Shown: piece after piece, positions 2,295-24,998 of the stretch
How the letters are laid out: each line of letters starts with the position of its first letter
How positions within the stretch are numbered: the first letter of the stretch is position 1
Assembly (NCBI GenBank): GCA_043821705.1
Contig: JBDRCN010000035.1
Span: forward strand, 43,321-107,320
Direction of reading: 5' to 3'
DNA from: Candidatus Omnitrophota bacterium
GTDB taxonomy: Bacteria > Omnitrophota > Gorgyraeia > Gorgyraeales > Gorgyraeaceae
DNA length: 64,000 bases
Made by a program: the position numbers and the translations under genes
Notes under the pieces: generated by a model
What the model was told of the DNA's origin: nothing
The model's database searches: none
The model's input: the letters and a program-made list of their open reading frames with translations, nothing else

Positions 2295-3602
2295 CTATTT
2301 AAGTTTTTTCAAGAAACTCACAAAGCCTGGGAAGGATTTATTTATGCAATCAAGGCCTCTTAGAGTGACTTTAGAATCTGATACGAGACCTGCTACAAGC
2401 AAAGTCATCGCAGTCCTATGGTCCCCAAAACTAGAAACCTGGCCACCAGTCAATCTTCCAGTCCCATTTACAATAAGCTCTTCCTTACTTGTGACATGTG
2501 ACTTGTGACATGTGACTTGTATATCTGCTCCTAGTTTAGTAAGATTCGTGACCATGGACATTATTCTATCTGTTTCTTTATAATGCAGCTCTTTTATCCC
2601 TCTTATAACAGTCTTCCCTTTTGCAAAACAAGCTGCAAGCACTATGATAGGTATCTCATCTATAGCTCTCACAACATCTTTTGGCGAGATAGTTACAGCC
2701 TTTAACCTGCTCGGCTTTACAACAATGTCTCCACTGGGTTCGTGATTCGTGAACCGTGATTCGTGAACCGTGATTCGTGCTCCCATCCGCTTCAAGATAT
2801 CCAATATACCTGTTCTTGTGGGATTCAAACCTACGTCCTTAAGCACTATTTTTTTATCCTGCAAAAGACAACCAGCTACTATAAAAAATGCTGCGCTTGA
2901 TATGTCGCCTGGGATCCTGATATTAGAAGGTGATCTTAATCCTTTAGATGAACCTATGCTGATGCTCAGTCCTTTTATTTTTACAGGATATTTAAAGGTC
3001 TTTAACATCCTCTCTGTATGATCCCTGGACCTTACAGGTTCAGTGATAATAGTCTTGCCTTTTGCGTATAAAGATGCGAGCATTATACAGGATTTTACCT
3101 GGGCACTAGCGATCTTTGAATTATATTTAATAGCTTTAAGTTTTCCTCCGTGGATCATTAGAGGCGGGTAGATTTCTTTTTTACCCCTTCCTGTGACACC
3201 TGCACCCATCTTCCTTAATGGCTTTGCGATCCTCAGCATCGGACGCTTAGATAAAGATCTATCCCCGCTCAAGGCCACATCAAAATCTTGTCCAGCCAAT
3301 ATCCCAGGTAATATCCTCATAGTAGTACCTGAATTGCCTACATATAAAATCTTCTTTGGCTTCTTTAGCCCACGAAGGCCAGTTCCTTTCACTGTGATAT
3401 CTATGGATCGGTTTTCCCTGATGTTCCTTTTTTTAAATTTGATCTCTATGCCCATGGAGCGGAATGCCTCTATGGTATGCAGGCAGTCATCTCCTGCCAA
3501 GAGATTATTTATGCGAGTAGTGCCTTTTGAGATAGCACTGAGCATTATTGCTCTGTGAGATATTGACTTATCTGGTGGGACTATTATTTTAACGACTTTC
3601 AA
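2295..3602 (-). CDS. aroA: 3-phosphoshikimate 1-carboxyvinyltransferase (EPSP synthase), carrying two short in-frame repeat insertions
   Basis: 435 aa. EPSP-synthase N-terminal motif PPDKSISHRAIMLSA...GTTRINNLL..DD, C-terminal DHRTAM and KSFPGF. The DNA contains a 14-bp tandem repeat at 2488-2520 and another at 2741-2780. Confidence 0.85.
   Translation of the reverse strand: MKVVKIIVPPDKSISHRAIMLSAISKGTTRINNLLAGDDCLHTIEAFRSMGIEIKFKKRNIRENRSIDITVKGTGLRGLKKPKKILYVGNSGTTMRILPGILAGQDFDVALSGDRSLSKRPMLRIAKPLRKMGAGVTGRGKKEIYPPLMIHGGKLKAIKYNSKIASAQVKSCIMLASLYAKGKTIITEPVRSRDHTERMLKTFKYPVKIKGLSISIGSSKGLRSPSNIRIPGDISSAAFFIVAGCLLQDKKIVLKDVGLNPTRTGILDILKRMGARITVHESRFTNHEPSGDIVVKPSRLKAVTISPKDVVRAIDEIPIIVLAACFAKGKTVIRGIKELHYKETDRIMSMVTNLTKLGADIQVTCHKSHVTSKEELIVNGTGRLTGGQVSSFGDHRTAMTLLVAGLVSDSKVTLRGLDCINKSFPGFVSFLKKLK
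2488..2520. repeat. tandem 14-bp repeat (cttgtgacatgtga x ~2.4) inside aroA, in frame
   Basis: Direct reading of the sequence. The unit contains the GTGACATGTGAC motif also seen at 24999-25112 and 28604-28690. It encodes the extra peptide VTCHKSHVTSKE in a region where EPSP synthases are normally compact. Confidence 0.8.
2741..2780. repeat. tandem 14-bp repeat (cgtgattcgtgaac x 2 plus cgtgattcgtgc) inside aroA, in frame
   Basis: Direct reading. It is GC-richer than the surrounding sequence and encodes RITVHESRFTNHEPS within AroA. Confidence 0.8.
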
Positions 3603-4395
3603 TAACTATATTGCCTCTTTTTATGGTATTTATATCAGCGCCTTCTAGGAGATTGGCGCTAGACATGGTTTCGTATACTTTATCGATCTCTGCTTCACCT
3701 AGTAAAAGGTTCCTGGAATCCCTTATTTCAATATACATCCCTTGTTCGATCCCGCTACCAAAACCAAGATCCGTGACCACAAAACCATACTCCTTATTTA
3801 CTACGACTACACTGCCTCTTAGAAGATCCTTCTTAGGCTCTGGCCGTCTTGAAGGAGCTCTTTTTTCTACAATAACCTCTTCTTCTGGTTCTTTTAATAC
3901 GATCGTATCCAGGTCTACTGGCCTTCTTTCAAGCTCTACAAGTTTTCTCTCGAGAGATGTTTTTTCCTGTCTTAATTTCGAATGATCTTGATTTAATCTC
4001 TGGTAGCTGATCTGGAGGTCTTGTAGCTTTTTAGCTGTATTTTGGGCTTCTACATCTTTACTTCTTAGAGTCTGTTTCAGATCTTCGAGCTCTTTCTCTT
4101 GCAACGCCGCTGTTCTTCTTTTAGCCCTAGCTTCTCTTAATTCCAGAGAAAGTATCTCCAGATTAGATCTGAGAGACGCATATTCGGAATCTATCTTGTC
4201 TTTTTCTGTCTTTATGGAAAAAACCTCTTTCTCAAGCTTTCTCTTATCTTTCATGATAGAAGAGATCTTGTCTTCCAATAATAACCTTTTTTGATACTCT
4301 TTTTGTTTTTGTTGATAGGTGAGAAACGCAAATCCTGCTAAGACAATAGCTGCAATAAGAATTATTATAAATATTATCTTAAATATACCAGACAT
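3589..4395 (-). CDS. hypothetical membrane-anchored coiled-coil protein with a C-terminal beta-rich domain
   Basis: 268 aa. N-terminal TM helix (IFIIILIAAIVLAGFAFL), a long K/E/R-rich coiled-coil, and a C-terminal ~80-aa domain (VVVVNKEYGFVVTDLGFGSGIEQGMYIEIRD...). I recognise no family. Confidence 0.4.
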   Translation of the reverse strand: MSGIFKIIFIIILIAAIVLAGFAFLTYQQKQKEYQKRLLLEDKISSIMKDKRKLEKEVFSIKTEKDKIDSEYASLRSNLEILSLELREARAKRRTAALQEKELEDLKQTLRSKDVEAQNTAKKLQDLQISYQRLNQDHSKLRQEKTSLERKLVELERRPVDLDTIVLKEPEEEVIVEKRAPSRRPEPKKDLLRGSVVVVNKEYGFVVTDLGFGSGIEQGMYIEIRDSRNLLLGEAEIDKVYETMSSANLLEGADINTIKRGNIVIESR

Positions 4396-4439
4396 ATATA
4401 TCCTTTTTTAAAGAGTATATAGTTAAATAACTTTTTTGT

Positions 4440-4660
4440 CAAGAATAATACCTCAACTATCAGCGGACTGTCTTGTCTCACCCCTATCAGCACCGCTCGG
4501 ATTCCCCCAGCGAGGGAATCCTTCGCTTCGTGAAACTTCTCGCTCTGCAAGACATGTATAATCTAGGGCAACCATGCCCGCTCGAACTTTCAAGATGCTT
4601 CTAGGGGTAAGCCAAGCCATCCGCTAATAGCTACTATAACCAAACCTAGGTTGCATGTAT
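4440..4660. repeat. GC-rich structured intergenic block built from repeat modules (a degenerate hairpin-family copy at ~4460-4500, plus modules shared with 37118-37130 and 58391-58413)
   Basis: 4460-4500 (cagcggactgtcttgtctcacccctatcagcaccgctcgg) aligns with the 5' arm of the 38507/58149/60453 family. gcccgctcgaac recurs at 37121. gtaagccaagccatccRctaata recurs at 58391. Confidence 0.5.
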
Positions 4661-4663
4661 TGG

Positions 4664-4936
4664 CTAGTTGGTCTCGTATGCCTCTAGAGCTATTTCTACT
4701 AGGACATCTTTAAACTCTTTGGTCAGCGGGTAAGCTGTGTTATACCATTTACCATCTTTACTCATTCCACCTGGCATACTTAAAAACAGACCATTCTTCC
4801 CTTCTACGATCTTAAGGCCTTTTACTAAGAACACTCCAGCAAATGCAATGTCCAAAAAAGCCTTGACCTTAGATTCTCCTTCGAGCTTATGCACTCTACG
4901 GACCTCAATACCATTATTATTCGTCATACTTATCAC
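4664..4936 (-). CDS. spoVG: septation protein SpoVG
   Basis: 90 aa. SpoVG-like sequence (VRRVHKLEGESKVKAFLDIAFAGVFLVKGLKIVEGKNGLFLSMP...DGKWYNTAYPL). Confidence 0.85.
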   Translation of the reverse strand: MISMTNNNGIEVRRVHKLEGESKVKAFLDIAFAGVFLVKGLKIVEGKNGLFLSMPGGMSKDGKWYNTAYPLTKEFKDVLVEIALEAYETN

Positions 4937-5375
4937 CTCCTCCTGTTATATTAGACACAGGAGGGGGTGATTTTCTTTCAAACTTTTTTTCTTTTTCTGG
5001 TATTTTTTTAAAGATCATTACTACGCGCCTAGCGCCTTCGCCTTCCATGACCCACTTAAAACCCATCACAACTGCTGCTAGTAAAAACTGCATAAAGTAT
5101 CTTTTTACTATAAAAGAAAGTAAAAATAAGACCAACGCTGCTATCATCCATGGAAGATCGTTCCTCTTTTTCCGCTTTATACCCAGCTTGTCCTTGATCT
5201 TATTCTTTAGCTCTAGAGAAGGGGTTTTTGCCTTCTTTCTACTCTCATGCGCTACTGCTAAAATATCAAGACACTTATTACAAGTTACTATATGCTTTTC
5301 TATTTTTAATCTCTCATCTTTCGAAAGTGCCTCATCCAGATACGAAGAAAGCATTATGTCATCTAAACAATCCAT
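4917..5375 (-). CDS. anti-sigma factor (zf-HC2 type) with a TM helix
   Basis: 152 aa. N-terminal LSSYLDEALSKDERLKIEKHIVTCNKCLD (H-x3-C-x2-C) and a central TM helix. It lies 10 bp downstream of the ECF sigma gene. Confidence 0.6.
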   Translation of the reverse strand: MDCLDDIMLSSYLDEALSKDERLKIEKHIVTCNKCLDILAVAHESRKKAKTPSLELKNKIKDKLGIKRKKRNDLPWMIAALVLFLLSFIVKRYFMQFLLAAVVMGFKWVMEGEGARRVVMIFKKIPEKEKKFERKSPPPVSNITGGGDKYDE

Positions 5376-5385
5376 ATCGATCTCC

Positions 5386-5949
5386 TTATTCTATTTTAAA
5401 CTCCCTTAATTTTTCCTTTAGTACTTTTTTCTTTCTGTGGATTATTGTCGAGACTGTATTTGTAGGCAGCCTCATAAAATCCGCTATCTCTCTATGTGTC
5501 TTTTTATAGATAATATTTAACTTCAGTATTATCTTTTCTCTGTTATTAAAATCCCTTATTATGATATCAAATTCTAAAGGTGTCCCCTTTAACCTAGGCT
5601 CACTAGATATATCCTGGGTGAGATTATCGATCCTATAAAACTCATCTTTCCCCAAAAGCCTTTCTTTTCTCTTCCGCACATAATTAAGAGCTCTACTTTG
5701 AGATACTACGCTAAGCCAGGCAGTTATCTTTTTTCTGTTAGCTATTTCTTTTAATCTGTTCTTTTCCAATATCTCAAGAAAGATACCTTGTACAATATCA
5801 TCCAGGTCTTCCTTTGAAAAACTTATCCCATTCCTCCAAAGCCTCTGCCTGGCAGAATAATACACAAGGCCAGAGAACTTACCTATGAAGGCTTCCCAGG
5901 CCATTTCATCCCTATTTATACATCTTTCTATTAAGCTATGTACATCCAT
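5386..5949 (-). CDS. RNA polymerase sigma-70 factor, ECF subfamily
   Basis: 187 aa. Region-2-like segment (DLDDIVQGIFLEILEK) and region-4 HTH (HREIADFMRLPTNTVSTIIHRKKKVL). Confidence 0.8.
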   Translation of the reverse strand: MDVHSLIERCINRDEMAWEAFIGKFSGLVYYSARQRLWRNGISFSKEDLDDIVQGIFLEILEKNRLKEIANRKKITAWLSVVSQSRALNYVRKRKERLLGKDEFYRIDNLTQDISSEPRLKGTPLEFDIIIRDFNNREKIILKLNIIYKKTHREIADFMRLPTNTVSTIIHRKKKVLKEKLREFKIE

Positions 5950-6038
5950 TTTGTCAATATCTTGTGGATAATTATAATAAAACTACTATAAGTATAATAT
6001 TTTCCAATATGTTGTGCAATCAGAAGTTTTACACACAA

Positions 6039-7013
6039 TTAGCATATATATTTTATTATGTTATTAAGCTCTTCTGGGAGTTCTGCCTCAAACTCCATTT
6101 TCTTTCCCTTCGTAGGGTGGATAAATTCAATGGACCTTGCGTGCAATGCATGATGCTCTAATCCCTGGGATGGAAAAGTGCTATACATTTTGTCACCTAG
6201 TATTGGATATCCTAGATGTAAAAAATGGATACGTATCTGGTGAGTACGGCCTGTCTTTGGCCTAGCTTCGACAATTGTTATGTTTTTCTTCTTATCTCTC
6301 TTTAATACCTTAAAGTACGTTATAGCCTCTTTCCCCTCTTCTATGTCCACTGCCATCCTGCGCCTATCTTTTTTATCATGGCTGAGAGGTGCGTTTATGA
6401 TCCCCTCATCAAACTCTATTATACCTCTACAGACAGCTAGATATTTTTTAGTCATAGACCTTTCTTTTAATTGCTTGGAAAGCTTTCTTAATGCTGGCCC
6501 GTTCTTGGCAACAATCATTACGCCCGAAGTATCTTTATCAAGCCTATGCACTATTCCTGGCCTTAAGACATGGCGCTCATCTTCTGTCTTCCTAGGTTTA
6601 TTGAAGTCTGTCAAAAACCCTTTATAATTTAAAAGCGCATTCACTAATGTGCCAGAATAATTCCCGCATGCCGGATGCACTACCATACCAGCTGGTTTAT
6701 TTACTACTATTATATCATCATCTTCGTAGATTATATTAAGCGGAAGGTCTTCTGCTCTAGGAGTCTTGCCTTCTTCTTCCAGGAGTGATTCTTCTTCTAA
6801 CTTTTCCTCATCTATTTCTATCAGATCATCTGGTTTTACCTTATGAGATGATTTCACTTCTTTTTTATTAAGATGTACATCACCTGATTCTATTAATCTC
6901 TGGATAACAGATCTTGATATTGCAAGCTCTGGCCGAGTATTAGCAATGTTCTTCGTAACAACATTATCTATTCTCTTGCCATTATCATCCAAGGTAACTA
7001 TCAATTCATACAT
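6039..7013 (-). CDS. rluD: 23S rRNA pseudouridine synthase, RluA family (RluD-like), with an acidic insertion
   Basis: 324 aa. N-terminal S4 domain, catalytic HRLDKDTSGVMIVAKN motif, and an acidic E/D-rich linker. Confidence 0.85.
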   Translation of the reverse strand: MYELIVTLDDNGKRIDNVVTKNIANTRPELAISRSVIQRLIESGDVHLNKKEVKSSHKVKPDDLIEIDEEKLEEESLLEEEGKTPRAEDLPLNIIYEDDDIIVVNKPAGMVVHPACGNYSGTLVNALLNYKGFLTDFNKPRKTEDERHVLRPGIVHRLDKDTSGVMIVAKNGPALRKLSKQLKERSMTKKYLAVCRGIIEFDEGIINAPLSHDKKDRRRMAVDIEEGKEAITYFKVLKRDKKKNITIVEARPKTGRTHQIRIHFLHLGYPILGDKMYSTFPSQGLEHHALHARSIEFIHPTKGKKMEFEAELPEELNNIIKYIC

Positions 7014-7040
7014 ATCTATACTCTAGTGTTCCCATCCTAC

Positions 7041-7108
7041 CCCTATTTCCCGAACAACTTGGAAACAGTTTCTAAGTTGTTCGGGAAACTGTTTCCAGAC
7101 TAATAGGG
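7041..7108. terminator. structured element between thrC and rluD, with nested and mutually exclusive inverted repeats
   Basis: A (7049-7060, cccgaacaactt) pairs with A' (7074-7085). B (7061-7072, ggaaacagtttc) pairs with B' (7086-7096). The order is A-B-A'-B'. An outer pair ccctatt (7041) / aataggg (7102) encloses them. Confidence 0.4.
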
Positions 7109-7116
7109 AAAGTGGG

Positions 7117-8178
7117 TCAGTATCCTATTTCTTTTATAATAGCTTCTAGTTTTGCAGGAAGTACATTTGGCTTTTCAATAGATTTTATTGCTCTATCAGG
7201 GTCCTTTAGGCCATGACCAGTCAGGATGCAAATGATCTTTGCTTTTTGTGCTTTCTTGAAAAAACCAGCCTTATTTATCTTTAAGATACCTGCTACAGAT
7301 GCAGCTGATGCAGGCTCCACAAACACGCCTTCTTTATTAGCTAATATCTTATAAGCTTCGAGGATCTCATCATCCGAAACCATATCTATGAGGCCTCCTG
7401 ATTCATCGCGAGCCTCTTCAGCCATCTTCCAACTTGCTGGATTCCCGATACGAATAGCTGTTGCAATAGTCTCTGGTTTTTCAACTACTTTTCCTCGCAC
7501 AATAGGCGCAGCACCTTCAGCTTGGAACCCAAGCATCTTTGGTAGAGATTTTATCTTCCCTTTTGCCTTATATTCTTTGTAACCTTTCCAATACGCAGTA
7601 ATATTCCCTGCATTTCCTACCGGTATAGCATGGAACACTGGAGCTTCTCCATCAAACTGATCGCAGATCTCAAACGCCCCTGTCTTCTGTCCCTCGATCC
7701 TGTAAGGATTCAAAGAATTTACCAGCTGTATAGGATATTTTCGAGCTATCTCTTTTACCAGATTTAATGCCTCATCAAAATTCCCTTTTACAGCTATAAC
7801 TTGGGCATTATGTATCATTGCTTGAGCAAGTTTGCCTAGAGCTATAGCGCCTTCTGGTATCAAGACCACACATTTCATCCTGGCCCTTGCTGAATAAGCT
7901 GCTGCAGAAGCTGAAGTATTCCCAGTAGAAGCACATATGCAAGCCTTTTTCCCTTCTTCAAGCGCCTTTGAGATAGCTAATGTCATGCCTCTATCTTTAA
8001 AAGAACCAGTAGGGTTCAAGCCTTCGTATTTTAGATACACTTCCACATCCCCATCAATAACATCTGAAAGATAACCTGAATAAATGAGAGGAGTATTCCC
8101 CTCATTTAAAGTTATCACAGGAGTCTTCGCACTAATTGGAAGATATTCTTTATACCTATCTATTAAACCTTTATACAT
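7117..8178 (-). CDS. thrC: threonine synthase
   Basis: 353 aa. PLP-lysine motif GSFKDRGMT and a TrpB-fold. Confidence 0.9.
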
Positions 8179-8183
8179 AATAG

Positions 8184-9485
8184 TTATTTCTCCAATCTTA
8201 TAAGTACACTTTTTCGTTTTATTGCATTTAACTTATCTATCTTTCTTAATGCGTTCTGTACGTCAGCTTCCTTAGCTTCATGAGTGATCATCACTACAGG
8301 CACTATCTGTGCAATGCGCCTTTCTTTTTGCACAACGCTTGCGATGCTGATATTGTTTTTTCCCAATATATCAGTGATCCTGGCCAACACGCCTGGTTTA
8401 TCAATAGTAGAAAAATGTATATAATATCTGGTATGTACATCGTCCATCTTCTTTATCTTGTCGATCTCTTGTTTTCTTGCAAAATTGCCTTTGCGGACAT
8501 CTCTCCCTACACTGATAGCATGACCCACATGGATAATATCGCTCAATACTGCACTTGCAGTAGGAAGTTTCCCAGCTCCCTTTCCATAATAGACCTGCTC
8601 CCCTACTAGATCCGCATCAATCGATATAGCATTATATACGCCCGAGACAGATGAAAGCAGATATTCCGATGGGAGTAAAGTCGGGTGCACTCTTAATTCA
8701 AGTTTCCCAGCCTCAGCCTTTGCTATAGCAAGAAGTTTTACTACATAACCAAGCTCTCTCGCGTATTCTATATCGAATGGAGAGATATTCTGGATACCTT
8801 CTGTGTAGATGTCCTTCATCTTGACCCTCTTGCCAAATGCAAGAAGACTCAATATTGATAATTTATGCGCAGAATCCAATCCATTTATATCAAGCGAAGG
8901 GTCTTTTTCAGCATAGCCTTTATCTTGAGCTTCTTTAAGTACTTTTTTAAAATCAGCTCCCTCACTAGTCATCTTTGACAATATATAATTCGAAGTACCG
9001 TTCAAAATGCCAAATATGTTTACAAATCTATTACTAGCCAATCCCTCTCTGATAGATCTTACAATAGGTATGCCGCCAGCTACACTAGCTTCGAAAAGTA
9101 CATATTTCCCTGCCTTCGCTGCCTTACTAAATATTTCATCTCCATTAGTAGCTAGAAGCAATTTATTGGCAGTCACTACGTGCTTACCTTTTGCTAAAGC
9201 CCTAAGCACGAACTCTTTTGCAGGATGTACCCCTCCCACAAGTTCCACGACAATATCTATCTTAGGATCATTGATGACTTTATCTATATCCTTGGTAAGG
9301 ATCCCTTTTGGAAGAGAAACATCTCTCTTGGTAGAGACATCCTTGTCACAGACTGCTTTTAGATTAAGGTCCAGCCCAGTCCTCTCATAAAAGATCTTTC
9401 GTCTTTCACGTAGAAGTTTTACTACCCCAGAACCTATAGTCCCAAAACCTATCACACCAATATTTATTAAATTTTTTTGTGCCAT
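8184..9485 (-). CDS. hom: homoserine dehydrogenase
   Basis: 433 aa. N-terminal NAD(P)-binding [13 protein letters not shown], a catalytic domain and a C-terminal ACT domain. Confidence 0.9.
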
Positions 9486-9496
9486 AACCTCATCCT

Positions 9497-9847
9497 TTAT
9501 TTGCCAGAACCATGTTCAATCACTTCTTTAATAAAATGTAGATCTTTATCTTTTATCTCAATAAACTTGACCCTAGTATCACACAACATCCCAGAACCTC
9601 GCTTTTTTGAATCCACAACTTCTCCTTTTATATCAATATAATCTGCAGCCTGGGGAACTTTTAATTTTATATCTAGCATTGCACCTTGGGCTAACTCTTT
9701 ATCAGTAGTGAACAGGATCCCTCCTTCACTGATATTCCTGGTCTGGGTTATATCAGCCTTTGGACTCTTTACTTCAACAACAGTATATGATACAACAAAA
9801 GACCTATCAACTCTTAAAAATTGTCTGCGTTCAGGTTTACCCTGCAT
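9497..9847 (-). CDS. PilZ-domain protein (c-di-GMP receptor)
   Basis: 116 aa. RRQFLRVDR (RxxxR motif) and NISEGGILF (D/NxSxxG motif). It ends 11 bp from the hom start. Confidence 0.75.
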   Translation of the reverse strand: MQGKPERRQFLRVDRSFVVSYTVVEVKSPKADITQTRNISEGGILFTTDKELAQGAMLDIKLKVPQAADYIDIKGEVVDSKKRGSGMLCDTRVKFIEIKDKDLHFIKEVIEHGSGK

Positions 9848-9968
9848 ATCATACCTCTCTTTTATGAGATTGGTTCTACTACGCCATTCGACTTCTTAAT
9901 CGATAGTATGGCTTCGTAGAAACCATTCCTGCGAAGCTCGAACGCGAAAGCATTCGAGCGTAGCAGAA

Positions 9969-10010
9969 TGGTCGGGGCGACTGGATTCGAACCAGCGACC
10001 CCCTGAACCG
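9969..10010 (-). repeat. 42-nt duplicate of the tRNA-Pro 3' half (anticodon-loop to CCA); candidate att scar
   Basis: Identical to 10177-10218 (tggtcggggcgactggattcgaaccagcgaccccctgaacc). No pairing 5' acceptor strand or anticodon stem follows it, so it is not a complete tRNA. Confidence 0.75.
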
Positions 10011-10176
10011 TCGTTCGCTAACGCTCACTCCTTAAGAAAAAACCCTGATGGTTTTTTCTTAATATTCTTTTTCCTTGCGCAAGGAAGTATAGTACGCCGA
10101 TAAGGGGAAACTATCTTTCCCCTTAAAATCCCCTTGTTGGGTTCAAGGAAAACATGTCTCGCACACGCAAATCAGA

Positions 10177-10276: not shown

Positions 10277-11281
10277 CTATTGTTCTGCTTTTAGTTCTCT
10301 TGTCATCAATTCTTTTACTGCCAAAAGTGGTGATTTATTTTCAAATATCACTGAATAAACCTCTTTTGTAATAGGTAGATCGATATTATGTCTTTTTCCT
10401 AACTCCACTGCTGCCTTTACGCTCCAAGCCCCTTCTATTTCCATCACGCTATTTTTCAGGAATTCTTTAGGGTCTTTGCCTTTTCCGATCTCTTCGCCAA
10501 ACCCACGGTTCCTTCCTTCTTTGCTGATAGAAGTAGTTATAAGGTCTCCCAGGCCTGTTAATCCATTGAATGTCTCTGGGTATGCCCCCAATCTTTCACC
10601 GAGTCTTGACATCTCTATCAGTCCTCTTGTAAGAAGTGCTGCTTTTGTGTTCGCCCCAAAGCCAAGTCCATCTGAAATACCTACTGCAATAGCGATAATA
10701 TTTTTTAGCGATCCGCCAAGTTCTACACCTACCAGGTCATTATTTGTATAGACCCTAAATCTCTCTGTGCCAAATACATCTCTTATCTTTAAATCCAGAT
10801 CCTTTTTATTCGAAGAGATGACCACTGTTGTAGGAATATTCCTTGCTACTTCTGGTGCAATGCTAGGTCCTGAAAGAACACATAACTTAACATCTCCCAG
10901 GATCTCATCAATAACCTGACTCATTCTCTTTAGGGTCTTGTCTTCAAGCCCCTTTACTACACTTACATATATCGGATCTATACCGTTAAAAATATCTTTA
11001 TTCTTATCTAAGACCTCTCTTAAAAAACGTGATGGGATCGCGAGCACCACCAGATCTCTTCCGCTGACAGATGCCTTAAGATCACAGCTTACCTGGATAG
11101 ATGGTGGTATCTTGACCCCGGGCAAAAATTTCTTATTCTCTTTATTATTATTTATAGCATCTATATTTTCTTTAAATATACCCCAAAGAGATACATCATA
11201 GCCCTTATTGCTTAATAGAACTGCAAGAGCTGTCCCCCAACCACCATCACCCAATACTCCGATCTTCACTTTATCCTCCAC
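10277..11281 (-). CDS. gpsA: NAD(P)H-dependent glycerol-3-phosphate dehydrogenase
   Basis: 334 aa. N-terminal GVLGDGGWGTALA Rossmann motif and the GpsA family fold. Confidence 0.9.
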   Translation of the reverse strand: MEDKVKIGVLGDGGWGTALAVLLSNKGYDVSLWGIFKENIDAINNNKENKKFLPGVKIPPSIQVSCDLKASVSGRDLVVLAIPSRFLREVLDKNKDIFNGIDPIYVSVVKGLEDKTLKRMSQVIDEILGDVKLCVLSGPSIAPEVARNIPTTVVISSNKKDLDLKIRDVFGTERFRVYTNNDLVGVELGGSLKNIIAIAVGISDGLGFGANTKAALLTRGLIEMSRLGERLGAYPETFNGLTGLGDLITTSISKEGRNRGFGEEIGKGKDPKEFLKNSVMEIEGAWSVKAAVELGKRHNIDLPITKEVYSVIFENKSPLLAVKELMTRELKAEQ

Positions 11282-11337
11282 AAGTTAATTAAGTTTATCA
11301 TATAGGAATTAAGTAGTCAATATAATCGAACTACGAC

Positions 11338-11390
11338 AAAAAAACCTAGCACTAATTTTCTGAATAACCCCAGAATAAAATTAGTGCTAG
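11338..11390 (-). terminator. intrinsic terminator for the 11410..11772 gene
   Basis: Perfect 15-bp stem cctagcactaatttt (11345-11359) / aaaattagtgctagg (11376-11390). On the minus strand it is followed by a T7 tract. Confidence 0.65.
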
Positions 11391-11409
11391 GTAACCAAGG
11401 AGATCTTAA

Positions 11410-11772
11410 TTATTTTTTTGTAGTACCTAAAAAATCTATCTCAAAAGAATGCTTGAATGTTATTGGATAAAGGCCATTTTTACATACTGCATAAAATTGG
11501 CCTACCACATCACATACAAAACTATCTTTCTTAGATTTAGTGTCATGTTTCTTAAAAATAAAGACGTGCCTCTTTGAAGGGCTCTTTGATACTGTCTGAG
11601 AAGTGCTTTCTAGCCCTTTTTGGCTATTCATATCAGCAGGCTTACCTATAATATAGACTGAGTGCCTCTTAGTAATAGTCTTAACCCCATTGTTTTCAAT
11701 AACTTCTGATATGTAGAGGTCTCTCCTCTTCTTATCTATTGAGGTTAGGTTTTTAAATACTAATTCTCTCAT
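11410..11772 (-). CDS. hypothetical protein
   Basis: 120-aa ORF, basic, with no motif I recognise. It is followed by a clean terminator. Confidence 0.3.
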   Translation of the reverse strand: MRELVFKNLTSIDKKRRDLYISEVIENNGVKTITKRHSVYIIGKPADMNSQKGLESTSQTVSKSPSKRHVFIFKKHDTKSKKDSFVCDVVGQFYAVCKNGLYPITFKHSFEIDFLGTTKK

Positions 11773-11886
11773 GTCTGCCTTTCACTTAATACTTTATAAA
11801 ACTATTTAGTCGATGTACAAAAAAAATCCATTCTCTATTTATATCTAAAGTATACCATACTGTTCTTTGATTTTCAAGGTAAGTGC

Positions 11887-12384
11887 CTACGATTTTAGGC
11901 AGTTAGGCAAAAGTAAGGATGCTATTAAAAGACAGGTACCTATAGTAATAGAGATATCTGCTATATTAAAGACTGGCCATATCCTAACATCAATAAAATC
12001 AACGACATAGCCCATTTTTAGCCTATCTATAAGGTTCCCAAAAGCCCCAGAAAATATCATAATAAATCCTATATTAAGAACCAGGTCTTTTAGAAGTTCC
12101 CCTTTTTTGATCCTTTTTATTAGGATAGAGGCTATTATTACGATCGCGATTATGGAGATTATTATAAAAAAATGAGTGGAGTTTTTAAATAGTCCAAAGG
12201 CTGCCCCAGTATTTCTGACATATGTAATGTGAAATATGTTCTTTATGAGAGGGATACTCTCCCCGACACCTAGGTTTTCTTTGATAAATAATTTAGTGAA
12301 TCGGTCTAGGATCAGTACTATCGAGACCAGGCAAGTTGCTATTAAAAATTGTTTTTTTCTTCCTTTGACTGGCATTGTATGCAT
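11887..12384 (-). CDS. lspA: lipoprotein signal peptidase II
   Basis: 165 aa. Four TM helices, plus the NTGAAFG and FNIADISI motifs of LspA. Confidence 0.85.
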   Translation of the reverse strand: MHTMPVKGRKKQFLIATCLVSIVLILDRFTKLFIKENLGVGESIPLIKNIFHITYVRNTGAAFGLFKNSTHFFIIISIIAIVIIASILIKRIKKGELLKDLVLNIGFIMIFSGAFGNLIDRLKMGYVVDFIDVRIWPVFNIADISITIGTCLLIASLLLPNCLKS

Positions 12385-12752
12385 TGGGTTGCGTAAGGTA
12401 ATGCGTTTAGGCGCTTGACTGGGATCTTTTTTTCACAAGAGAAGCACTTGCCGTACTTGCCTTCTTTTATGCGCTTTAATGCCTCGTCTATCTTATAGAT
12501 GATCTCTTGTTCACCGCTTGCAATATTAAAGCTCAATTCTCTATCATAACTATCGCTAGCCATATCTGCCATGTGAGAACTATAACTTGAAAGATCACCT
12601 GAAGCTTCTTTTTGAGAAGCCTTGTTCTGCTTAGCGATATTATGTATCTCGTCCATTACCTCTTCTCTTTTTTTAAGAAGTAATTTTTTAAACTTAGCTG
12701 CCTCTGTCTTTATCATGAAAAACCTATCTCCCTTCTTTAATGAGCACATCAC
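12342..12752 (-). CDS. DksA/TraR-family C4 zinc-finger regulator
   Basis: C-terminal CFSCEKKIPVKRLNALPYATQCIQC (C4 finger) and a coiled-coil N-terminal part. It sits in the classical ileS-lspA interval. The start may be the internal ATG at 12716 rather than 12752; the 5' extension overlaps a repeat element. Confidence 0.7.
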   Translation of the reverse strand: MMCSLKKGDRFFMIKTEAAKFKKLLLKKREEVMDEIHNIAKQNKASQKEASGDLSSYSSHMADMASDSYDRELSFNIASGEQEIIYKIDEALKRIKEGKYGKCFSCEKKIPVKRLNALPYATQCIQCQSKEEKNNF

Positions 12753-12890
12753 TTAGCAAACAAAGTGAAGCTAAGTGATTAGTGCGAATTAAATCCCGCC
12801 CCTTTAGTAACTATTATTTAATAGTAGCTAAAAGGGGCGGGATCAAATTCAGACTCATAAGTTACGTCATTTCATTCCGTAACTTATGTC
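12743..12890. repeat. composite hairpin repeat, copy 1 (agcacatcacttagc...gtgcgaattaaatcccgccc...aaaggggcgggat...ataagttacg...cgtaacttat)
   Basis: It shares ~130 nt of ordered hairpin modules with 41422-41548. The central GC stem followed by ATTTAATT on the minus strand resembles an intrinsic terminator for ileS. Confidence 0.7.
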
Positions 12891-12891
12891 T

Positions 12892-15630
12892 TCATTTGAC
12901 AATATCCAAGCATCTCTTGCATAGTGTCGGATGATCAGGATCTTCTCCCAGATCTAAAGTAAAGTTCCAGCATCTTTCGCATTTACTGCCGTCTGCTTTT
13001 ACAACCTCTATTCTTCTATCTTTACTTTTCTCCAGCTGGACCTGTGAGCTTATAAAAAATGCTGCCAGGTCTAACTTGTAATTTGTCAAAAAATTATACT
13101 CTACATCATCTTTCATGTAAAGCTTTATTTTTGCTTCCAGAGGGCTCCCTATTACCTTTGCAGCCCTCTTCTCTTCAATTGCTTTCAATACTTCGACCCT
13201 TAAACTCTCTAATCTCTTAAAATTCTCTTCTAATTCGAGGTTTATAAATTCACTCTCCAGCTTAGGCCAATCTGCCAGATGTATTGAACCCTCTCCCTTA
13301 AAATATCCCCAGACCTCTTCACATGTAAAAGGCAAGATCGGAGCAAGTACCCTTACTAGAATATCCAGTATCTTATAGAGCGCTGTCTGAGCTGAGCGCC
13401 TTTCATTTGATTTTTCCCCAAAAGTATACAGTCTATCCTTTAAAATATCAAGGTAAAAACTGGACATCTCTACTATGCAGAATTTATACACAGTACTTAC
13501 TACTTCATGATATCTATAGTTTTCATACGCCAGAGTAACGCTTTTCAGCATAGAATTAGCCCTGGACAAGGCCCATCTATCTATCTCGAGCATATCCTTT
13601 TTATCTACTTTATCTTTTTCGAGATCAAAATCACAGATATTGCCTAATATATATTTAGCAGTGTTCCTGAATTTTCTATAGGCCTCTACTGTGCGCTGCA
13701 AGATCTCCTCTGATATCTTTATATCATCAAAATACGACGACGCACTCACCCAAAGTCTTAAGACATCTGCGCCTTTTTTAGAGATGATCTCCTGCGGTGC
13801 GATCACATTGCCAGCTGATTTACTCATCTTCTTGCCTTCACCATCTACTACGAAACCATGAGTAAGTACATTTTTAAACGGACTTTTACCTACTACTCCC
13901 ATACCTATTAATAGAGAGGTCTGAAACCACCCTCTGTGTTGATCGCTTCCTTCTAGGTATAGATCTGCTGGAAATCCTAGATTCTCTCTTATCTTTAAGA
14001 CTCCTTGATGACTTGCTCCTGATTCAAACCATACATCCAGGATATCAGTCTCTTTTTTAAATTCACTTCCTCCGCATAAACACTTAAACCCTTCTGGTAA
14101 AAATTCTTTCGCTTCCTTTATAAACCATGCGTCTGAGCCCTGTTTTTCAAAAATCTCTTCTATTAACTTCATGGCTTTTTTATCAATTATCTCCTTATCA
14201 CAAGACATACAGTATATAATAGGTACAGGCACTCCCCAATAACGCTGCCTTGAGAGGCACCAATCAGGCCTAAGCTCTATCATGCCTCTGATCCTCTTCT
14301 CTCCTGCTTCAGGCACCCACTTTATTTTTCCTATCTCTTTTAGGGTCCTTGGGCGAAGTTCTTTTTTATCCACTCCTAAAAACCACTGTTTAGTTGCCCT
14401 GAATATAAGAGGACTATGGCATCTCCAGCAATGTGGGTAAGAATGGGAGGTCTCTTCCCAAAGAAGAAGCGCCTCAGTCTCCATTAAAAGTTTTTTGACT
14501 ATCTCGTTCGTCTTATAGATATCTTTTCCAATGACTTCTTCTGGGACTTCAAATCCTTGAGGCTTAAAGAACTTACCTTTATCATCAATCGGCATAATAG
14601 CAGGAAGGCCGTACTTTAAACCTGCTTGATAGTCTTCCTGGCCATGTCCTGGCGCAATATGTACGCAACCAGTACCATCTTCACTTGAGACATAATCTGC
14701 GAGGACTACTTTCGCTTCTCGGCCGATAAAAGGATGCTTTGTAACTATACCTTCCAATTCTTTTCCTGAAAATCTCTTGATGATCTTTCCATCCAGGTCA
14801 AGTTTTTCAGTCAACTTTTCTAAGAGAGCTTCAGTAAACACTATCACACCGCCGTGCTTTCTCTCAAAAGCAACATATTTTAGGTCAGGATGTATAGCTA
14901 TAGCTACATTTGAGATAAGAGTCCATGGAGTAGTGGTCCATACTAGAAAACATGCATTATTATCTTTTAAGAATCCATCTGATGTGACCTTAAACTCTAC
15001 GTATATTGACGGGGATCTATGTTCTTCATATTCTACTTCAGCTTCTGCTAATGCAGTCTCACATTTACTACACCAGTTTATAGGTTTAAGGCCTCTATAG
15101 ATAAGGCCATCACTTAAGAGCTTATTGAAGCTCGAGATTATTTCCCTTTCATAAGTTTTATCTAATGTAAGGTATGGATCCTCCCAATCACCAAATACAG
15201 CTAGTCTTTTAAACTCATCTTTCTGGATATTGACAAATTTCATAGCAAAGTCATGTGCCATCTTTCTAAATTTCACCTGCAAAACATCGTGCTTGGTCTT
15301 TTTCATCTCCTTGAAAAGCTGGTGTTCTATGGGCATTCCATGGCAATCCCATCCAGGGACATATGGCGCATTAAAACCCTGCATTGTCTTATATTTCACT
15401 ACTATGTCTTTTAGTGTCTTATTTAAGGCGTGGCCTATATGAATATTTCCATTAGCATACGGCGGTCCATCATGAAGTATATATTTAGGAGAATCTTTCC
15501 GGTGCTCTCTGATCTTTTTATATATGTTTTCTTTTTCCCATTTCTCGAGAATAACTGGTTCTTTTTGCGGAAGGTTCCCCTTCATGGGAAATTCAGTCTT
15601 TGGTAAATTCAGGGTTTTCTTGTATTCCAT
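12892..15630 (-). CDS. ileS: isoleucine--tRNA ligase
   Basis: 912 aa. HIGH (PYANGNIHIGHAL), KMSKS (KMSKSAGN) and a C-terminal Zn-finger (CxxC...CxxC). Confidence 0.95.
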   Translation of the reverse strand: MEYKKTLNLPKTEFPMKGNLPQKEPVILEKWEKENIYKKIREHRKDSPKYILHDGPPYANGNIHIGHALNKTLKDIVVKYKTMQGFNAPYVPGWDCHGMPIEHQLFKEMKKTKHDVLQVKFRKMAHDFAMKFVNIQKDEFKRLAVFGDWEDPYLTLDKTYEREIISSFNKLLSDGLIYRGLKPINWCSKCETALAEAEVEYEEHRSPSIYVEFKVTSDGFLKDNNACFLVWTTTPWTLISNVAIAIHPDLKYVAFERKHGGVIVFTEALLEKLTEKLDLDGKIIKRFSGKELEGIVTKHPFIGREAKVVLADYVSSEDGTGCVHIAPGHGQEDYQAGLKYGLPAIMPIDDKGKFFKPQGFEVPEEVIGKDIYKTNEIVKKLLMETEALLLWEETSHSYPHCWRCHSPLIFRATKQWFLGVDKKELRPRTLKEIGKIKWVPEAGEKRIRGMIELRPDWCLSRQRYWGVPVPIIYCMSCDKEIIDKKAMKLIEEIFEKQGSDAWFIKEAKEFLPEGFKCLCGGSEFKKETDILDVWFESGASHQGVLKIRENLGFPADLYLEGSDQHRGWFQTSLLIGMGVVGKSPFKNVLTHGFVVDGEGKKMSKSAGNVIAPQEIISKKGADVLRLWVSASSYFDDIKISEEILQRTVEAYRKFRNTAKYILGNICDFDLEKDKVDKKDMLEIDRWALSRANSMLKSVTLAYENYRYHEVVSTVYKFCIVEMSSFYLDILKDRLYTFGEKSNERRSAQTALYKILDILVRVLAPILPFTCEEVWGYFKGEGSIHLADWPKLESEFINLELEENFKRLESLRVEVLKAIEEKRAAKVIGSPLEAKIKLYMKDDVEYNFLTNYKLDLAAFFISSQVQLEKSKDRRIEVVKADGSKCERCWNFTLDLGEDPDHPTLCKRCLDIVK

Positions 15631-15632
15631 AA

Positions 15633-16496
15633 TTACATGTACTTTCCGATGATTATGTCTAATTTTTTCTTAGTCGTTTCTGGGATCAATTTCCTATCTG
15701 TAATGATCGCATATTTAAGAGCATCTTTGCATTCGCACGCTCTTTCTTTGGCCAGCTCGGGCACTACAGCCTTTATAAGGCGTTTTGCATTCTCTACGTT
15801 CTTAGTCAGATTAGCTATGACCATGTCAATAGTCACCATCTCTTCGTGCCAGCAATCATAATCAGTGACAAATGCGACTGTCGAATAACAAATTTCAGCT
15901 TCTCTTGCTAATCGTGCTTCAGGCATATTAGTCATACCTATAATATCCAGTCCCAGGCCTTTAAATAAAAGAGATTCACCTTTTGTTGAGAATGCTGGGC
16001 CTTCCATGTTTAGGTATGTGCCTTTTGGATGAGCAGTTAATTTAAGCTCCTTTGTGGCTTCAAATATCGTCTCTCTAAGATGCCTACAAACAGGTTCAGC
16101 AAATGTAATGTGCCCGACTATGCCCTCACCGAAGAATGTTGTCTTACGAGCTTGGTTGGTCCTATCTACAAACTGATCAGGAAGTACAATGTCTAAGGGC
16201 TTAAGCTCTTTTTTATAGCTACCTACTGCTGAGATCGAGATAATCCTTTCTACCCCAAGCTTTTTCATACCATATATATTTGCCCTATAATTTAATTCTG
16301 TAGGAAGGATCCTATGGCCTCTACCATGCCTCGGAAGAAATGCTACTTCTATGCCTTCTAATGTTCCAGTGGTATAGCTATCTGAGGGATCACCAAAAGG
16401 CGTATCCATCTTTACTTCTTTTATATTATTTAAGCTATCTATATTATATAGACCACTTCCGCCTATAATGCCAATTTTAGCCATATTTTCCTCCAA
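15633..16496 (-). CDS. mtnP: S-methyl-5'-thioadenosine phosphorylase
   Basis: 287 aa. PNP/MTAP family with IGIIGGSGL at the N-terminus. Confidence 0.85.
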   Translation of the reverse strand: MEENMAKIGIIGGSGLYNIDSLNNIKEVKMDTPFGDPSDSYTTGTLEGIEVAFLPRHGRGHRILPTELNYRANIYGMKKLGVERIISISAVGSYKKELKPLDIVLPDQFVDRTNQARKTTFFGEGIVGHITFAEPVCRHLRETIFEATKELKLTAHPKGTYLNMEGPAFSTKGESLLFKGLGLDIIGMTNMPEARLAREAEICYSTVAFVTDYDCWHEEMVTIDMVIANLTKNVENAKRLIKAVVPELAKERACECKDALKYAIITDRKLIPETTKKKLDIIIGKYM

Positions 16497-16571
16497 ATTT
16501 TAAATTAATTTGATGTGGTATATTATCACATCAGGGAAGGTTATGCAATGATTTTTCTCTATGATTTTTCT

Positions 16572-17633
16572 CTATGAGGATTGATCTTTTTTTAAGGCTC
16601 TTTTGATCATAAACTCTACATTTTCATTAGTATTTTTGTAAATAATGTTTTTGTTCCGATTGTTTGACTTCCATACCCGAAATACCTCATCAGCAAATCC
16701 CTGTCCTACTGTCTCTACACCGTCAAAATCCAATATGATCTCCTCAAATTTATCTAATCCTGTTAAAAGCCTCCTGGCCTGCGATCTAGAGATGTATTCG
16801 GAAGTCATTTTATATAACTTTACAATAACCTTGGTCCTAGTGAATTTAAATGAGTCATCTGCGTAGGCGTTAAAAATATCCCTAAGCTTTCTTTTTGAAT
16901 CAAGGCTTATTGAAAAAAATACTTTTGTGCCTATAAATTTATTTATATCCTTTATAAAAATATCCTGCACTATATTATCAAAGATCAGTTTTTTTGTGGA
17001 ACTTTGAATTCTCAAGATATCAGCTGCCTTTGAGGTAAAAAATATACCCTCGCCGCTATGAGATTTAGGCTGAGTTGACAATTTACCTTTTATAAGATCT
17101 TGTATGGCTTCAGATTCATTCTTAAGCCCCTTTTTCTTTATTATATTGTTATAAATCCCTATTCCCTTATCTCTCACTGAAAATCTGATGCCAATATCAT
17201 CTCTATCCATAACCACTTCTATCTTTTTAGACTCAGAATGCTCAATAGCGTTATTTAACATCTCAGTAAAGGCATATCCCAAAATCGCTGAAACATTTTC
17301 AGAGATGCCAACAAAAATACTTGTTTTATTCTTAATTTTATCAAGAATAATATCCTCGGATAAATCCAAATTATTTAAGATATAATAAGATCTTAATATA
17401 GTTTTTTTAGCCTCTTTTATGTTTTCTTCGTTTGCAATTATATACCGCGCTTTGTTTGCTTTTCCAATAAGAACTATTTTGCCCTCTTCTCTCAATCGTT
17501 GGAAAAATCGGTTTATATACACTCGTGAAAATCCAGTAAGCTTAGTAAGGTCAGAGACCTTCACTTCTTTTTTCTTTTCCAGTAACTGCATTATTGATTT
17601 GGTAATATCCATATTATATCTCCTTAAAAACAT
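16572..17633 (-). CDS. fused wHTH / GHKL ATPase (RsbW/SpoIIAB-like) / DUF4325 (STAS-like) regulator
   Basis: 353 aa. N-terminal winged HTH, central HATPase_c N-box (EMLNNAIEHS) and G1 box (DKGIGI), and a C-terminal DUF4325-like segment (ILDFDGVETVGQGFADEVF). Confidence 0.6.
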   Translation of the reverse strand: MFLRRYNMDITKSIMQLLEKKKEVKVSDLTKLTGFSRVYINRFFQRLREEGKIVLIGKANKARYIIANEENIKEAKKTILRSYYILNNLDLSEDIILDKIKNKTSIFVGISENVSAILGYAFTEMLNNAIEHSESKKIEVVMDRDDIGIRFSVRDKGIGIYNNIIKKKGLKNESEAIQDLIKGKLSTQPKSHSGEGIFFTSKAADILRIQSSTKKLIFDNIVQDIFIKDINKFIGTKVFFSISLDSKRKLRDIFNAYADDSFKFTRTKVIVKLYKMTSEYISRSQARRLLTGLDKFEEIILDFDGVETVGQGFADEVFRVWKSNNRNKNIIYKNTNENVEFMIKRALKKDQSS

Positions 17634-17645
17634 ATTTTGTTAACA

Positions 17646-17770
17646 ACTTATATATAAAATATAAAATTAAAGCTGTTAACAAGTTGTAAACTGCTTAATA
17701 GTCCTCAAAAAGTAGTATTTAGTTTAAAACTATAGTATATACTATAGTTTTAAAGTTGTCAACAAGTTAT
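17646..17770. promoter_or_regulatory. candidate operator/promoter region: three TTGTYAACAAG palindromic sites plus a perfect 32-bp palindrome
   Basis: ttgttaacaa (17646-55), ctgttaacaag (17683-93), ttgtcaacaag (17755-65). The palindrome tttaaaactatagtatatactatagttttaaa lies at ~17717-17748. The region sits immediately upstream of the HTH-ATPase gene start. Confidence 0.45.
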
Positions 17771-18577
17771 CTACTTTTTTGAAAGAGATCTGGATTTGTT
17801 ATAGGCAGATTTTAGGGCGAGTTTGACTATTTTTTCAAAGCCTTTTTTCTTGAATACCTCTAGTGCTGCTTCAGTAGTACCGCCTTTTGAAGCAACTTTC
17901 TTCACAAAATCCTGCATAGAGATATTGCTCTTAGAAGCAACTGCACCCGCCCCTACAAAGGTAGCTAGAGCGAGCTTTCTAGCTAGGTCTTTTTTTAGTC
18001 CGCAGGATATACCAGCTTTTTCTAATAGATCTGTAAGTAGGAAATAATACGCAGGTCCGCTTCCACTTAAAGCAGTAACAGCATGCATCAGACTTTCTTT
18101 TACTACTACTACACCCCCTACTTTCGAGAAGATCTTCTTTGCCTTTTCCATGTCCTTTTTCTTAGCATACTTTCCCTTAGATATAGCAGAGATCCCTTTG
18201 CCTACCATTAAAGGCATGTTAGGCATTACTCTGACTACTCTCACATTACAAAACGAGTAGGGGAGGTTTAAACCTCCCCTACTCGTTAGGGCCTTTTCTA
18301 TAAACTTGGTTTCGATGCCTGCTGCAATAGAAATAATCAATTTATTTTTAGTAAAAGGCGTTATCTCCTTTAAGACGCTTGATATGTTCTGAGGTTTTAC
18401 AGCTAATATTATAATATTGGATCTTTTGACTAGCTCTATATTATTTTTAGCTAGTTTTATTGACCTGATCTTTATCTTGCGAAGTTTCTTTTTATCCAGA
18501 TCACTCAGCAAGAGTCCTTTTCCAATCCTTACTGCAATAGCCTTACCCATATTACCCGCACCGATCATGCCTATCAT
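17771..18577 (-). CDS. proC: pyrroline-5-carboxylate reductase, carrying an in-frame palindromic insertion
   Basis: 268 aa. N-terminal IGMIGAGNMG Rossmann motif and the ProC VVRVMPN motif. A perfect 36-bp palindrome at 18252-18287 encodes an extra ~12-aa segment just before VVRVMPN. Confidence 0.85.
   Translation of the reverse strand: MIGMIGAGNMGKAIAVRIGKGLLLSDLDKKKLRKIKIRSIKLAKNNIELVKRSNIIILAVKPQNISSVLKEITPFTKNKLIISIAAGIETKFIEKALTSRGGLNLPYSFCNVRVVRVMPNMPLMVGKGISAISKGKYAKKKDMEKAKKIFSKVGGVVVVKESLMHAVTALSGSGPAYYFLLTDLLEKAGISCGLKKDLARKLALATFVGAGAVASKSNISMQDFVKKVASKGGTTEAALEVFKKKGFEKIVKLALKSAYNKSRSLSKK
18252..18287. repeat. perfect 36-bp palindrome (aacgagtaggggaggttt|aaacctcccctactcgtt) inside proC
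   Basis: Direct reading. It is GC-rich relative to its surroundings and in frame. Confidence 0.85.
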
Positions 18578-24985: not shown

Positions 24986-24998
24986 ATTAACTCCCTAT

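Follow-up and report, generated by a model that had tools for sequence, protein, structure and literature searches.

Described relatives of short repeats in genes

Rickettsia palindromic elements (RPEs), which are said to have been described by Ogata and colleagues in 2000 and 2002 and by Claverie and Ogata in 2003, are selfish palindromic repeats tolerated in frame in essential proteins, where they are surface-exposed and are inherited vertically after insertion. RPE-1 measures about 100 to 150 bp and, to our knowledge, is restricted to Rickettsia. Intragenic copies have already been described for GTAG-tagged repetitive extragenic palindromic (REP) sequences as well (Di Nocera, De Gregorio and Rocco 2013, PMC3733652). 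What is said here of classical GTAG REPs and of RPE tags follows the abstract and the sections consulted of that survey, in which the highest number of intragenic REPs is that of Opitutus terrae, a member of the PVC (Planctomycetes-Verrucomicrobia-Chlamydiae) group, the short RPE-4 and RPE-6 belong to a CGTC-tagged superfamily and not to the GTAG one, and Omnitrophota are not named. A further kind of repeat consists of tandem heptamers, among them the short tandemly repeated repetitive (STRR) sequences of heterocystous cyanobacteria, the GGGNATC repeats of Xanthomonas and Nostoc (PMC4692102), and the TAACTGA heptamers, which are common to Beggiatoaceae, Cyanobacteria and Bacteroidetes and lie near start codons (PMC4679880). 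We compared with these systems three short in-frame repeats in the genes aroA and proC of a Candidatus Omnitrophota bacterium, all within a stretch of 64,000 nucleotides (assembly GCA_043821705.1, contig JBDRCN010000035.1, positions 43,321 to 107,320), the whole of which is called the window below. The initial annotation had taken all three for repeats behaving like RPEs. They are two different things, a GTAG REP in proC and two heptamer arrays in aroA; RPE-like behavior fits proC alone, and none of the three is an RPE. The host genes and the repeats are as follows.

2295 to 3602, minus strand: aroA, class II 5-enolpyruvylshikimate-3-phosphate (EPSP) synthase, host of the two heptamer arrays; PDB matches to E=1.5e-109
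2487 to 2520, minus strand: heptamer array 1, coding strand CAA GTCACAT GTCACAA GTCACAT GTCACAA GT, encoding QVTCHKSHVTS, residues 362-372
2738 to 2782, minus strand: heptamer array 2, coding strand (CACGAAT CACGGTT) x2.9, encoding ARITVHESRFTNHEP, residues 275-289
17771 to 18577, minus strand: proC, pyrroline-5-carboxylate reductase (P5CR), host of the palindrome; open reading frame (ORF) of 268 aa; PDB P5CR matches to E=1.9e-33
18252 to 18287, no strand assigned: perfect 36-bp palindrome, consisting of the REP core GTAGGGGAGGTTTAAACCTCCCCTAC at 18257-18282 and 5-bp complementary outer arms

Both reading frames are uninterrupted over these coordinates, as had been stated, and the peptides cited for the three repeats are their correct translations. 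The description of the repeats as GC-rich was right only in a mild sense, since they reach 43-50% (counted by hand) against about 38% for the window. The AroA of the window is 100% identical to a protein from an Omnitrophota metagenome-assembled genome (MAG) at NCBI, P0001, and its ProC is 100% identical to another such protein, P0121. For comparison we used a sister genome (GCA_043814965.1) that is syntenic with the window over the mur-fts-proC region. On balance, we consider it probable that the window belongs to an Omnitrophota genome carrying two unrelated classes of short repeats, which are tolerated in genes only where selection permits.

The proC palindrome and its REP family

The palindrome in proC is perfect over its 36 bp, as had been noticed, is unique in the window and found no match in 100 shuffles. 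It is translated as T98-F109 of ProC, TSRGGLNLPYSF. Among 22 Omnitrophota ProC proteins aligned, these 12 residues are present in two, that of the window and its nearest relative, the ProC of the sister genome (P0122, 74% identity), and the other 20 have a gap there (12 columns in 17 of them, 11 in three). The same gap is seen in three solved P5CR structures aligned to the window protein. In the AlphaFold 2 (AF2) model, the segment lies in a coil, residues 99-112, between helix 90-98 and strand 113-118, and the predicted local distance difference test (pLDDT) falls below 50 at residues 101-108. In proC, then, the palindrome is a real insertion of 12 codons, placed in a disordered loop at the surface. 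At the RNA level, the element is predicted to form a hairpin of 16 bp with -30.2 kcal/mol (z=-6.7). A separate, AT-rich palindrome, perfect over 32 bp (TTTAAAACTATAGTATATACTATAGTTTTAAA), lies at 17723-17754 in the spacer just 3' of proC, with the flanking motifs GTTAACAAGTTG and GTCAACAAGTTA.

By its sequence, the palindrome of proC belongs to a family of GTAG-tagged REPs with an associated REP-associated tyrosine transposase (RAYT), a transposase of the Y1/HUH tyrosine type. Loci were collected from a species-representative genome collection by the 20-nt core GGGGAGGTTTAAACCTCCCC, which gave at least 119 stretches. Among the matches listed, nearly all come from Omnitrophota MAGs, with many copies in some genomes; about 20 of these loci come from a single MAG (JAUYBI01), and one stretch (L030) holds five copies in 8 kb. 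Alignment of 142 copies yields a conserved 26-bp unit, GTAGGGGAGGTTTAAACCTCCCCTAC, that begins with GTAG and ends with CTAC. GTAG precedes the stem in most of these copies, and GCAG is among the minority variants. The flanks vary copy by copy yet stay complementary, so that the palindrome extends past the 24-nt TAGG...CCTA core by 3.9 nt on average, where random flanks would give about 0.33. Ten sequence variants occur in the loci, all of them perfect palindromes with 100% Watson-Crick pairs; in the count of pairs, 15 cells changed on both sides, none on one side only, and no G-U pair was seen.

A protein of 163 aa adjoins REP copies in two genomes and matches Pfam Y1_Tnp at 4e-12 and 8.6e-09. 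Its best PDB match is 4ER8, the TnpA-REP of E. coli (E=4.7e-11, full length), and in both genomes the gene has REPs on both sides:

L080, 1406-1897: RAYT gene, with REPs at 1311-1350, 1365-1392 and 1899-1940
L021, 6301-6792: RAYT gene, with REPs at 6259-6300 and 6793-6836

The REP units that flank these two genes bear a GTTATCCACA tail, and a TTATCCACA tail is found on 22 of the 130 REP copies in stretches L001-L119 (about 17%). A RAYT gene between REPs is the REPtron architecture known from GTAG REPs (PMC3733652), and the REP may be bound, cleaved and mobilized by its RAYT. We take TTATCCACA to be identical to the E. coli DnaA-box consensus; about half of its occurrences in the REP loci adjoin a REP. 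A second Y1_Tnp protein, of 228 aa (Pfam E=2.6e-14) and about 30% identical to the 163-aa RAYT, was also observed, at L046 1617-2300 and L112 945-1628, loci that likewise carry REPs.

Two of the three frames of the REP contain a stop codon. The third gives the same peptide on either strand, RGGLNLPY, which is why all intragenic copies encode it. Of the 142 copies, eleven lie within long ORFs, and nine (about 6%) are in frame in Pfam-confirmed genes, all of them as RGGLNLPY. The hosts are an RmlB-like dehydratase (in three genomes), GT2, GT4, LpxB, a DUF2341 protein, a polysaccharide deacetylase and a TPR/CBM60 protein. In addition, the AroA of another species holds the same REP element, alike in peptide and in DNA.

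The traits by which GTAG REPs and REPtrons are recognized, namely, a palindromic unit of 20-40 bp, a GTAG end, dispersed and mainly extragenic copies and a RAYT flanked by REPs, are found in the Omnitrophota family. Its unit is a palindrome of 26-36 bp that starts with GTAG and occurs in many dispersed, mostly extragenic copies, it has subfamilies with compensated stem changes, its Y1_Tnp/RAYT gene is flanked by copies, and a minority of copies are in frame in genes. High dispersed copy number is found across the genome collection and not inside the window, which has one copy in 64 kb. The family differs from the GTAG REPs of the survey sections consulted in being a loopless perfect palindrome centered on TTTAAA, in pairing its tag with CTAC where the classical tag is unpaired, and in outer arms that are copy-specific yet complementary, with the TTATCCACA tail on about 17% of copies and no G-T pairs. 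The proC element thus adds to a known kind, a GTAG REP, whose intragenic copies have been published. With it, a new REP/RAYT system is documented for the large, uncultured phylum Omnitrophota, where housekeeping enzymes provide clean examples of in-frame copies.

With RPEs, the proC REP shares the traits named at the outset, and the comparison drawn by the initial annotation is sound for proC as a description. As family membership it does not hold. The proC element measures 26-36 bp, is GTAG-tagged and RAYT-linked and resides in Omnitrophota, whereas RPE-4 and RPE-6 are CGTC-tagged in the sections of the survey consulted (PMC3733652), a separation made by the tag and not by a consensus alignment. 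Nor does the comparison suit aroA, whose repeats are direct and whose array 2 is no insertion.

The sister genome carries an insert at the same ProC codon, and its DNA, ACGAGTAGGGGAACTTTAAAGTTCCCCTACTCGT, is again a perfect palindrome. Relative to the window, a change of GG to AC in one arm is mirrored by a change of CC to GT in the other, and the peptide differs at three residues; the DNA around the insert is about 68-70% identical between the two genomes. Either the element has come down from before the split of the window and sister lineages, or it was re-converted later. What maintains its symmetry acts at the nucleic-acid level, and selection on the peptide does not account for the complementarity of the arms. 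A history consistent with these observations would be that a 36-bp unit (26-bp core plus 5-bp arms), from a family whose copies may be mobilized by the RAYT, was inserted once before the split, in the ProC coil. The insert would have persisted by being 12 codons long, by sitting in the sole stop-free REP frame and by occupying a tolerant loop. The arms may have been kept complementary in one of two ways, by DNA-level copying from arm to arm (template switching or quasipalindrome correction) or by conversion with other REP copies as donors, and such copying or conversion is the most likely cause of the exact symmetry. Copying at the DNA level is favored over selection at the RNA level because the REP variants lack G-U pairs and one-sided intermediates. 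Quasipalindrome template-switch mutagenesis is reportedly established in E. coli, with work attributed to Ripley in 1982 and to the Lovett laboratory. A palindrome that has stayed perfect across a speciation offers a natural test case for how symmetry is kept, by copying of DNA between arms or by selection.

Heptamer arrays in aroA, in the phylum and beyond

Tandem Repeats Finder confirms the two tandem 14-mers reported for aroA, ACTTGTGACATGTG x2.4 at 2487-2520 and CGTGATTCGTGAAC x2.8 at 2741-2779, each with a 100% match. It also reports a 7-nt period for both (TGTGACA x4.4 and TTCGTGA x5.9), and by a self-match scan no short period other than 7/14 is enriched in the window. The arrays are direct repeats of NTCACNN units, not palindromes, and neither gives a fold signal (z = -1.4 and 0.0). 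Their peptides form beta-hairpin segments in the AF2 model of AroA, with strands at 276-281 and 290-296 and at 360-367 and 372-380. By alignment, array 2 is a length-neutral replacement and not an insertion. Its peptide, ARITVHESRFTNHEP, aligns gap-free to the class II EPSP synthases of Acinetobacter and Bacillus, such as DLTVENERIAGGEP, including those in the PDB, and the loop is 2 residues shorter than that of the sister, which has 17 aa of unrelated sequence. Array 1 amounts to a modest insertion; its variable beta-hairpin loop has 4 residues more than the sister, about 8 more than Bacillus and about 9 to 10 more than the shortest Omnitrophota orthologs. The proposal that each repeat adds about 11-13 residues, as a lineage-specific insertion at a surface loop, therefore stands for proC, where 20 of 22 orthologs are gapped by 11-12 columns and the model places the insert in a low-confidence coil, and falls for both aroA arrays.

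Neither array is present in the aroA of the sister genome; with this absence and with copies that are perfect, the arrays appear recent in this lineage. The antisense strand of such arrays contains TGA in every frame after three units, so only the sense orientation survives in genes, as in aroA. We suggest that the arrays would be passengers without a role in the protein, made by slipped-strand or template-switch replication, and that repeats of either class would be seen in genes only after a filter that lets through repeats which lack stops, have a length divisible by three and fall in a tolerant loop.

Related units are dispersed between genes of the window, as had been observed. Clusters of GWCACAN occur at 25002-25015, 25087-25107, 28605-28618 and 28640-28679, and the window holds five such clusters against 0.45 expected. 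The four located here belong to two intergenic elements, whose hairpin arms are made of GWCACAN heptamers:

24986 to 25113, minus strand: element A, between ftsW and murG, a hairpin of about 105 nt with arms of GWCACAN/CACGAAC heptamers, -42 kcal/mol, z=-2.2
28588 to 28679, minus strand: element B, between murF and mraY, GACACAT-type arrays, direct and inverted, around a 9-bp hairpin, fold z=-2.95

Array 1 and an arm of element A have 16 nt in common, CAAGTCACATGTCACA. Both elements are absent at the syntenic positions of the sister, where the spacers measure about 15-20 nt (about 15 nt for B). A search of the window with Rfam at gathering thresholds found one tRNA and assigned neither element to a curated RNA family.

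Arrays of the same period occur elsewhere in the phylum. In 875 kb of other Omnitrophota DNA we counted 11 arrays of period 7, against 0-2 for most other periods, with units that differ among genomes. Some of them are in frame in HypF, AlaRS and LeuRS, with the units AGCTGRA, GTAGGYA, AACCGAR and GGAGGAC, at L078 859-898 and 1304-1335, L015 4264-4306 and L114 7251-7290.

The LeuRS array overlays an existing loop, with a length difference of only 2 residues from Thermus LeuRS. Beyond the phylum, an exact 24-mer of array 2, CACGAATCACGGTTCACGAATCAC, is found in 27 metagenome contigs, mostly in intergenic positions. The contigs range from 35 to 68% GC, a spread by which they must belong to organisms of different lineages. 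The arrays that flank the 24-mer use related units (TCACGCA, TCACCAG, ATTCACC and GATTACG), and at least 7 of the 27 contigs have an inverted array in the upstream flank. For eleven copies of the 24-mer, the position falls within codons 1 to 46 of an open frame longer than 220 codons, a placement that may correspond to positions just 5' of a gene.

The aroA arrays resemble STRR-like repeats in their head-to-tail 7-nt units and in a unit family that is dispersed and mainly intergenic. With the STRR, GGGNATC and TAACTGA heptamers they share tandem arrays of few copies, placed mostly between genes near gene starts or ends, a unit common to distant phyla, occasional copies in ORFs and one orientation barred from coding by stops. 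They differ in the unit family, NTCACNN (GTCACAT/GTCACAA and CACGAAT/CACGGTT), in which two units often alternate to give a 14-nt period, and in arrays that often form inverted arms around a hairpin. They differ also in their coding sites, here in the middle of essential enzymes (AroA, LeuRS, AlaRS and HypF) and not at protein termini, and in that aroA array 2 and the LeuRS array leave the loop length unchanged. A full-text literature search for the unit sequences gave a single, unrelated paper and no description of the NTCACNN family, and one for palindromic or repeat elements of Omnitrophica or Omnitrophota found nothing relevant. With the aroA arrays, a new unit family joins a kind of repeat that is known but little understood, and its length-neutral position in mid-enzyme is unusual.

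The loops of AroA that hold the arrays are themselves prone to change. The AroA of Omnitrophota measures anywhere from 396 to 559 aa, because about five main variable regions of its alignment take up palindromic or tandem repeat inserts. Most of these regions come after a conserved strand of the MG(A/V)xI type, and they may represent equivalent beta-hairpin turns of the repeated fold units. In three other genomes the DNA of the inserts consists of nested palindromes or of tandem repeats, such as CCCTCTCCCCAAAGGGGAGAGGG, CTCGCTCGAAGAATATTGTTCGAGCGAG and GTCATTGCGAG, and the AroA protein P0012 has a 14-mer tandem at a different loop. The two arrays of the window occupy two AroA hot spots for repeat turnover across the phylum. 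Across the alignment and stretches L123, L124 and L125, inserts return at the same loops with the peptides FSTR..SKNIVRA, LTLSPKGRGKGEG, VIASEAKQS and PRLRSGQ, which as DNA are nested palindromes. For annotation and alignment it matters that RGGLNLPY, LTLSPKGRGKGEG and FSTR..SKNIVRA are translations of repeats and not domains.

Alternative explanations and further repeats

Several observations weigh against the reading of two unrelated repeat classes set out above. On the side of proC, the classical REP tag is unpaired but the GTAG of the Omnitrophota REP pairs with CTAC at its other end, and standard Y1 transposition leaves the copy-specific complementary flanks unexplained. With regard to activity in this genome, no RAYT gene was found in the 64-kb window, and the only REP copy there is that of proC. 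On the side of aroA, the array-2 peptide has I, V, R, E and P in common with the canonical loop, an agreement that could indicate an origin in place. Simple slippage predicts a change in length, yet array 2 and the LeuRS array are length-neutral, and exact identity with arrays of distant phyla is hard to square with purely local slippage. Moreover, P0001 has one member on one contig, so that the aroA arrays are known from a single assembly.

Some of these points would be met by templated homogenization in place, in which template switching overwrites tolerant stretches with a neighboring 7- or 14-nt register and perfects imperfect inverted repeats, as in proC and smc, without import of DNA. 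Array 2, the LeuRS array and a 26-bp palindrome in smc (described below) are all length-neutral; array 2 retains canonical residues at both ends of its peptide, and the proC palindrome stays perfect through paired changes without G-U intermediates, in line with the E. coli precedent for quasipalindromes. Nevertheless, we regard this explanation as unlikely. The 24-mer of array 2 recurs in 27 unrelated contigs over a wide GC range, so the unit is not dictated by the native aroA, array 1 shares its 16 nt with element A, and the proC core belongs to a dispersed family and was not formed locally.

The view of the initial annotation as a whole, that all three repeats are RPE-like selfish elements inserted at compact positions, is quite improbable to us. 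It has in its favor the fit of proC, a loop at array 1 that is 8-10 residues shorter in many orthologs, and the related heptamers dispersed in the window. Against it, the aroA repeats are direct and not palindromic and lack a fold signal, array 2 adds no residues relative to canonical enzymes and is shorter than the sister loop, and the proC element is a GTAG REP with a RAYT and not a Rickettsia RPE by the tags given in the consulted sections of the survey (PMC3733652).

We give as little credence to a more far-reaching idea, which we mention as speculation for the mechanism it would imply. The NTCACNN arrays may be the footprint of an active sequence-specific process common to several phyla, either an enzyme-driven templated writing or conversion or a conserved factor that binds the arrays. 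Such a process would overwrite tolerant coding loops with their length unchanged, as in aroA array 2 and LeuRS, and would drive rapid loop turnover in essential enzymes of Omnitrophota. Coding arrays that are length-neutral and recur across phyla could point to an unrecognized mutational or regulatory mechanism.

Still less probable is a role of the repeats as functional motifs, with the NTCACNN arrays as protein binding sites and the REP hairpin selected for pausing, mRNA stability or protein binding. The unit is conserved across phyla and its arrays tend to sit just 5' of ORFs, for which the TAACTGA heptamers, common to several phyla and located upstream of start codons, provide a precedent (PMC4679880); conservation is higher in the REP element than in the coding DNA next to it, and the proC hairpin, with its predicted -30 kcal/mol, is very stable. 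However, the sister aroA does without both arrays and 20 other ProC orthologs do without the hairpin, so neither is needed for the function of the gene. The covariation of the REP is strictly Watson-Crick, without G-U, which speaks for DNA rather than RNA, and the host genes of the intragenic REPs are functionally unrelated.

Artifacts of assembly, from collapsed or chimeric reads, would suit a source that is a MAG with P0001 on a single contig, but they can hardly be the explanation when the sister genome, assembled independently, has the proC insert at the same site, the repeats are 33-45 nt long, a length that we judge to be below that of a typical sequencing read, none of the three interrupts its frame and the folds around them are predicted with high confidence, and comparable in-frame repeats occur in many independent assemblies. 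Two further candidates were rejected. The shuffles and the dispersed families rule out a chance origin. That a diversity-generating retroelement brought about the length-neutral replacement was rejected on reasoning alone, aroA being no known kind of target and the product being a tandem heptamer array; reverse transcriptase and template or variable repeats were not searched for.

Two other repeats were observed in the window. A perfect 26-bp palindrome, ACAACACTTGCTATAGCAAGTGTTGT, lies at 63899-63924 in the coiled-coil region of smc, a gene that continues past the end of the window. It is directly preceded by TTATCCACA (63893-63924 together) and is read as the peptide ETTLAIASVVD; by our own estimate, such a palindrome is expected by chance about 1e-3 times per window. 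It was considered as a further insertion but is not an obvious one, as the single ortholog that spans the site (P0241) shows no length difference. The other is an intergenic repeat of about 130 nt, present in two copies that are 85% identical, at 12740-12870 and 41420-41545. It contains a GC-rich hairpin, ATCCCGCCCC...GGGGCGGGAT, between short repeats of the AGTGA type and is probably a dispersed element that carries a terminator.

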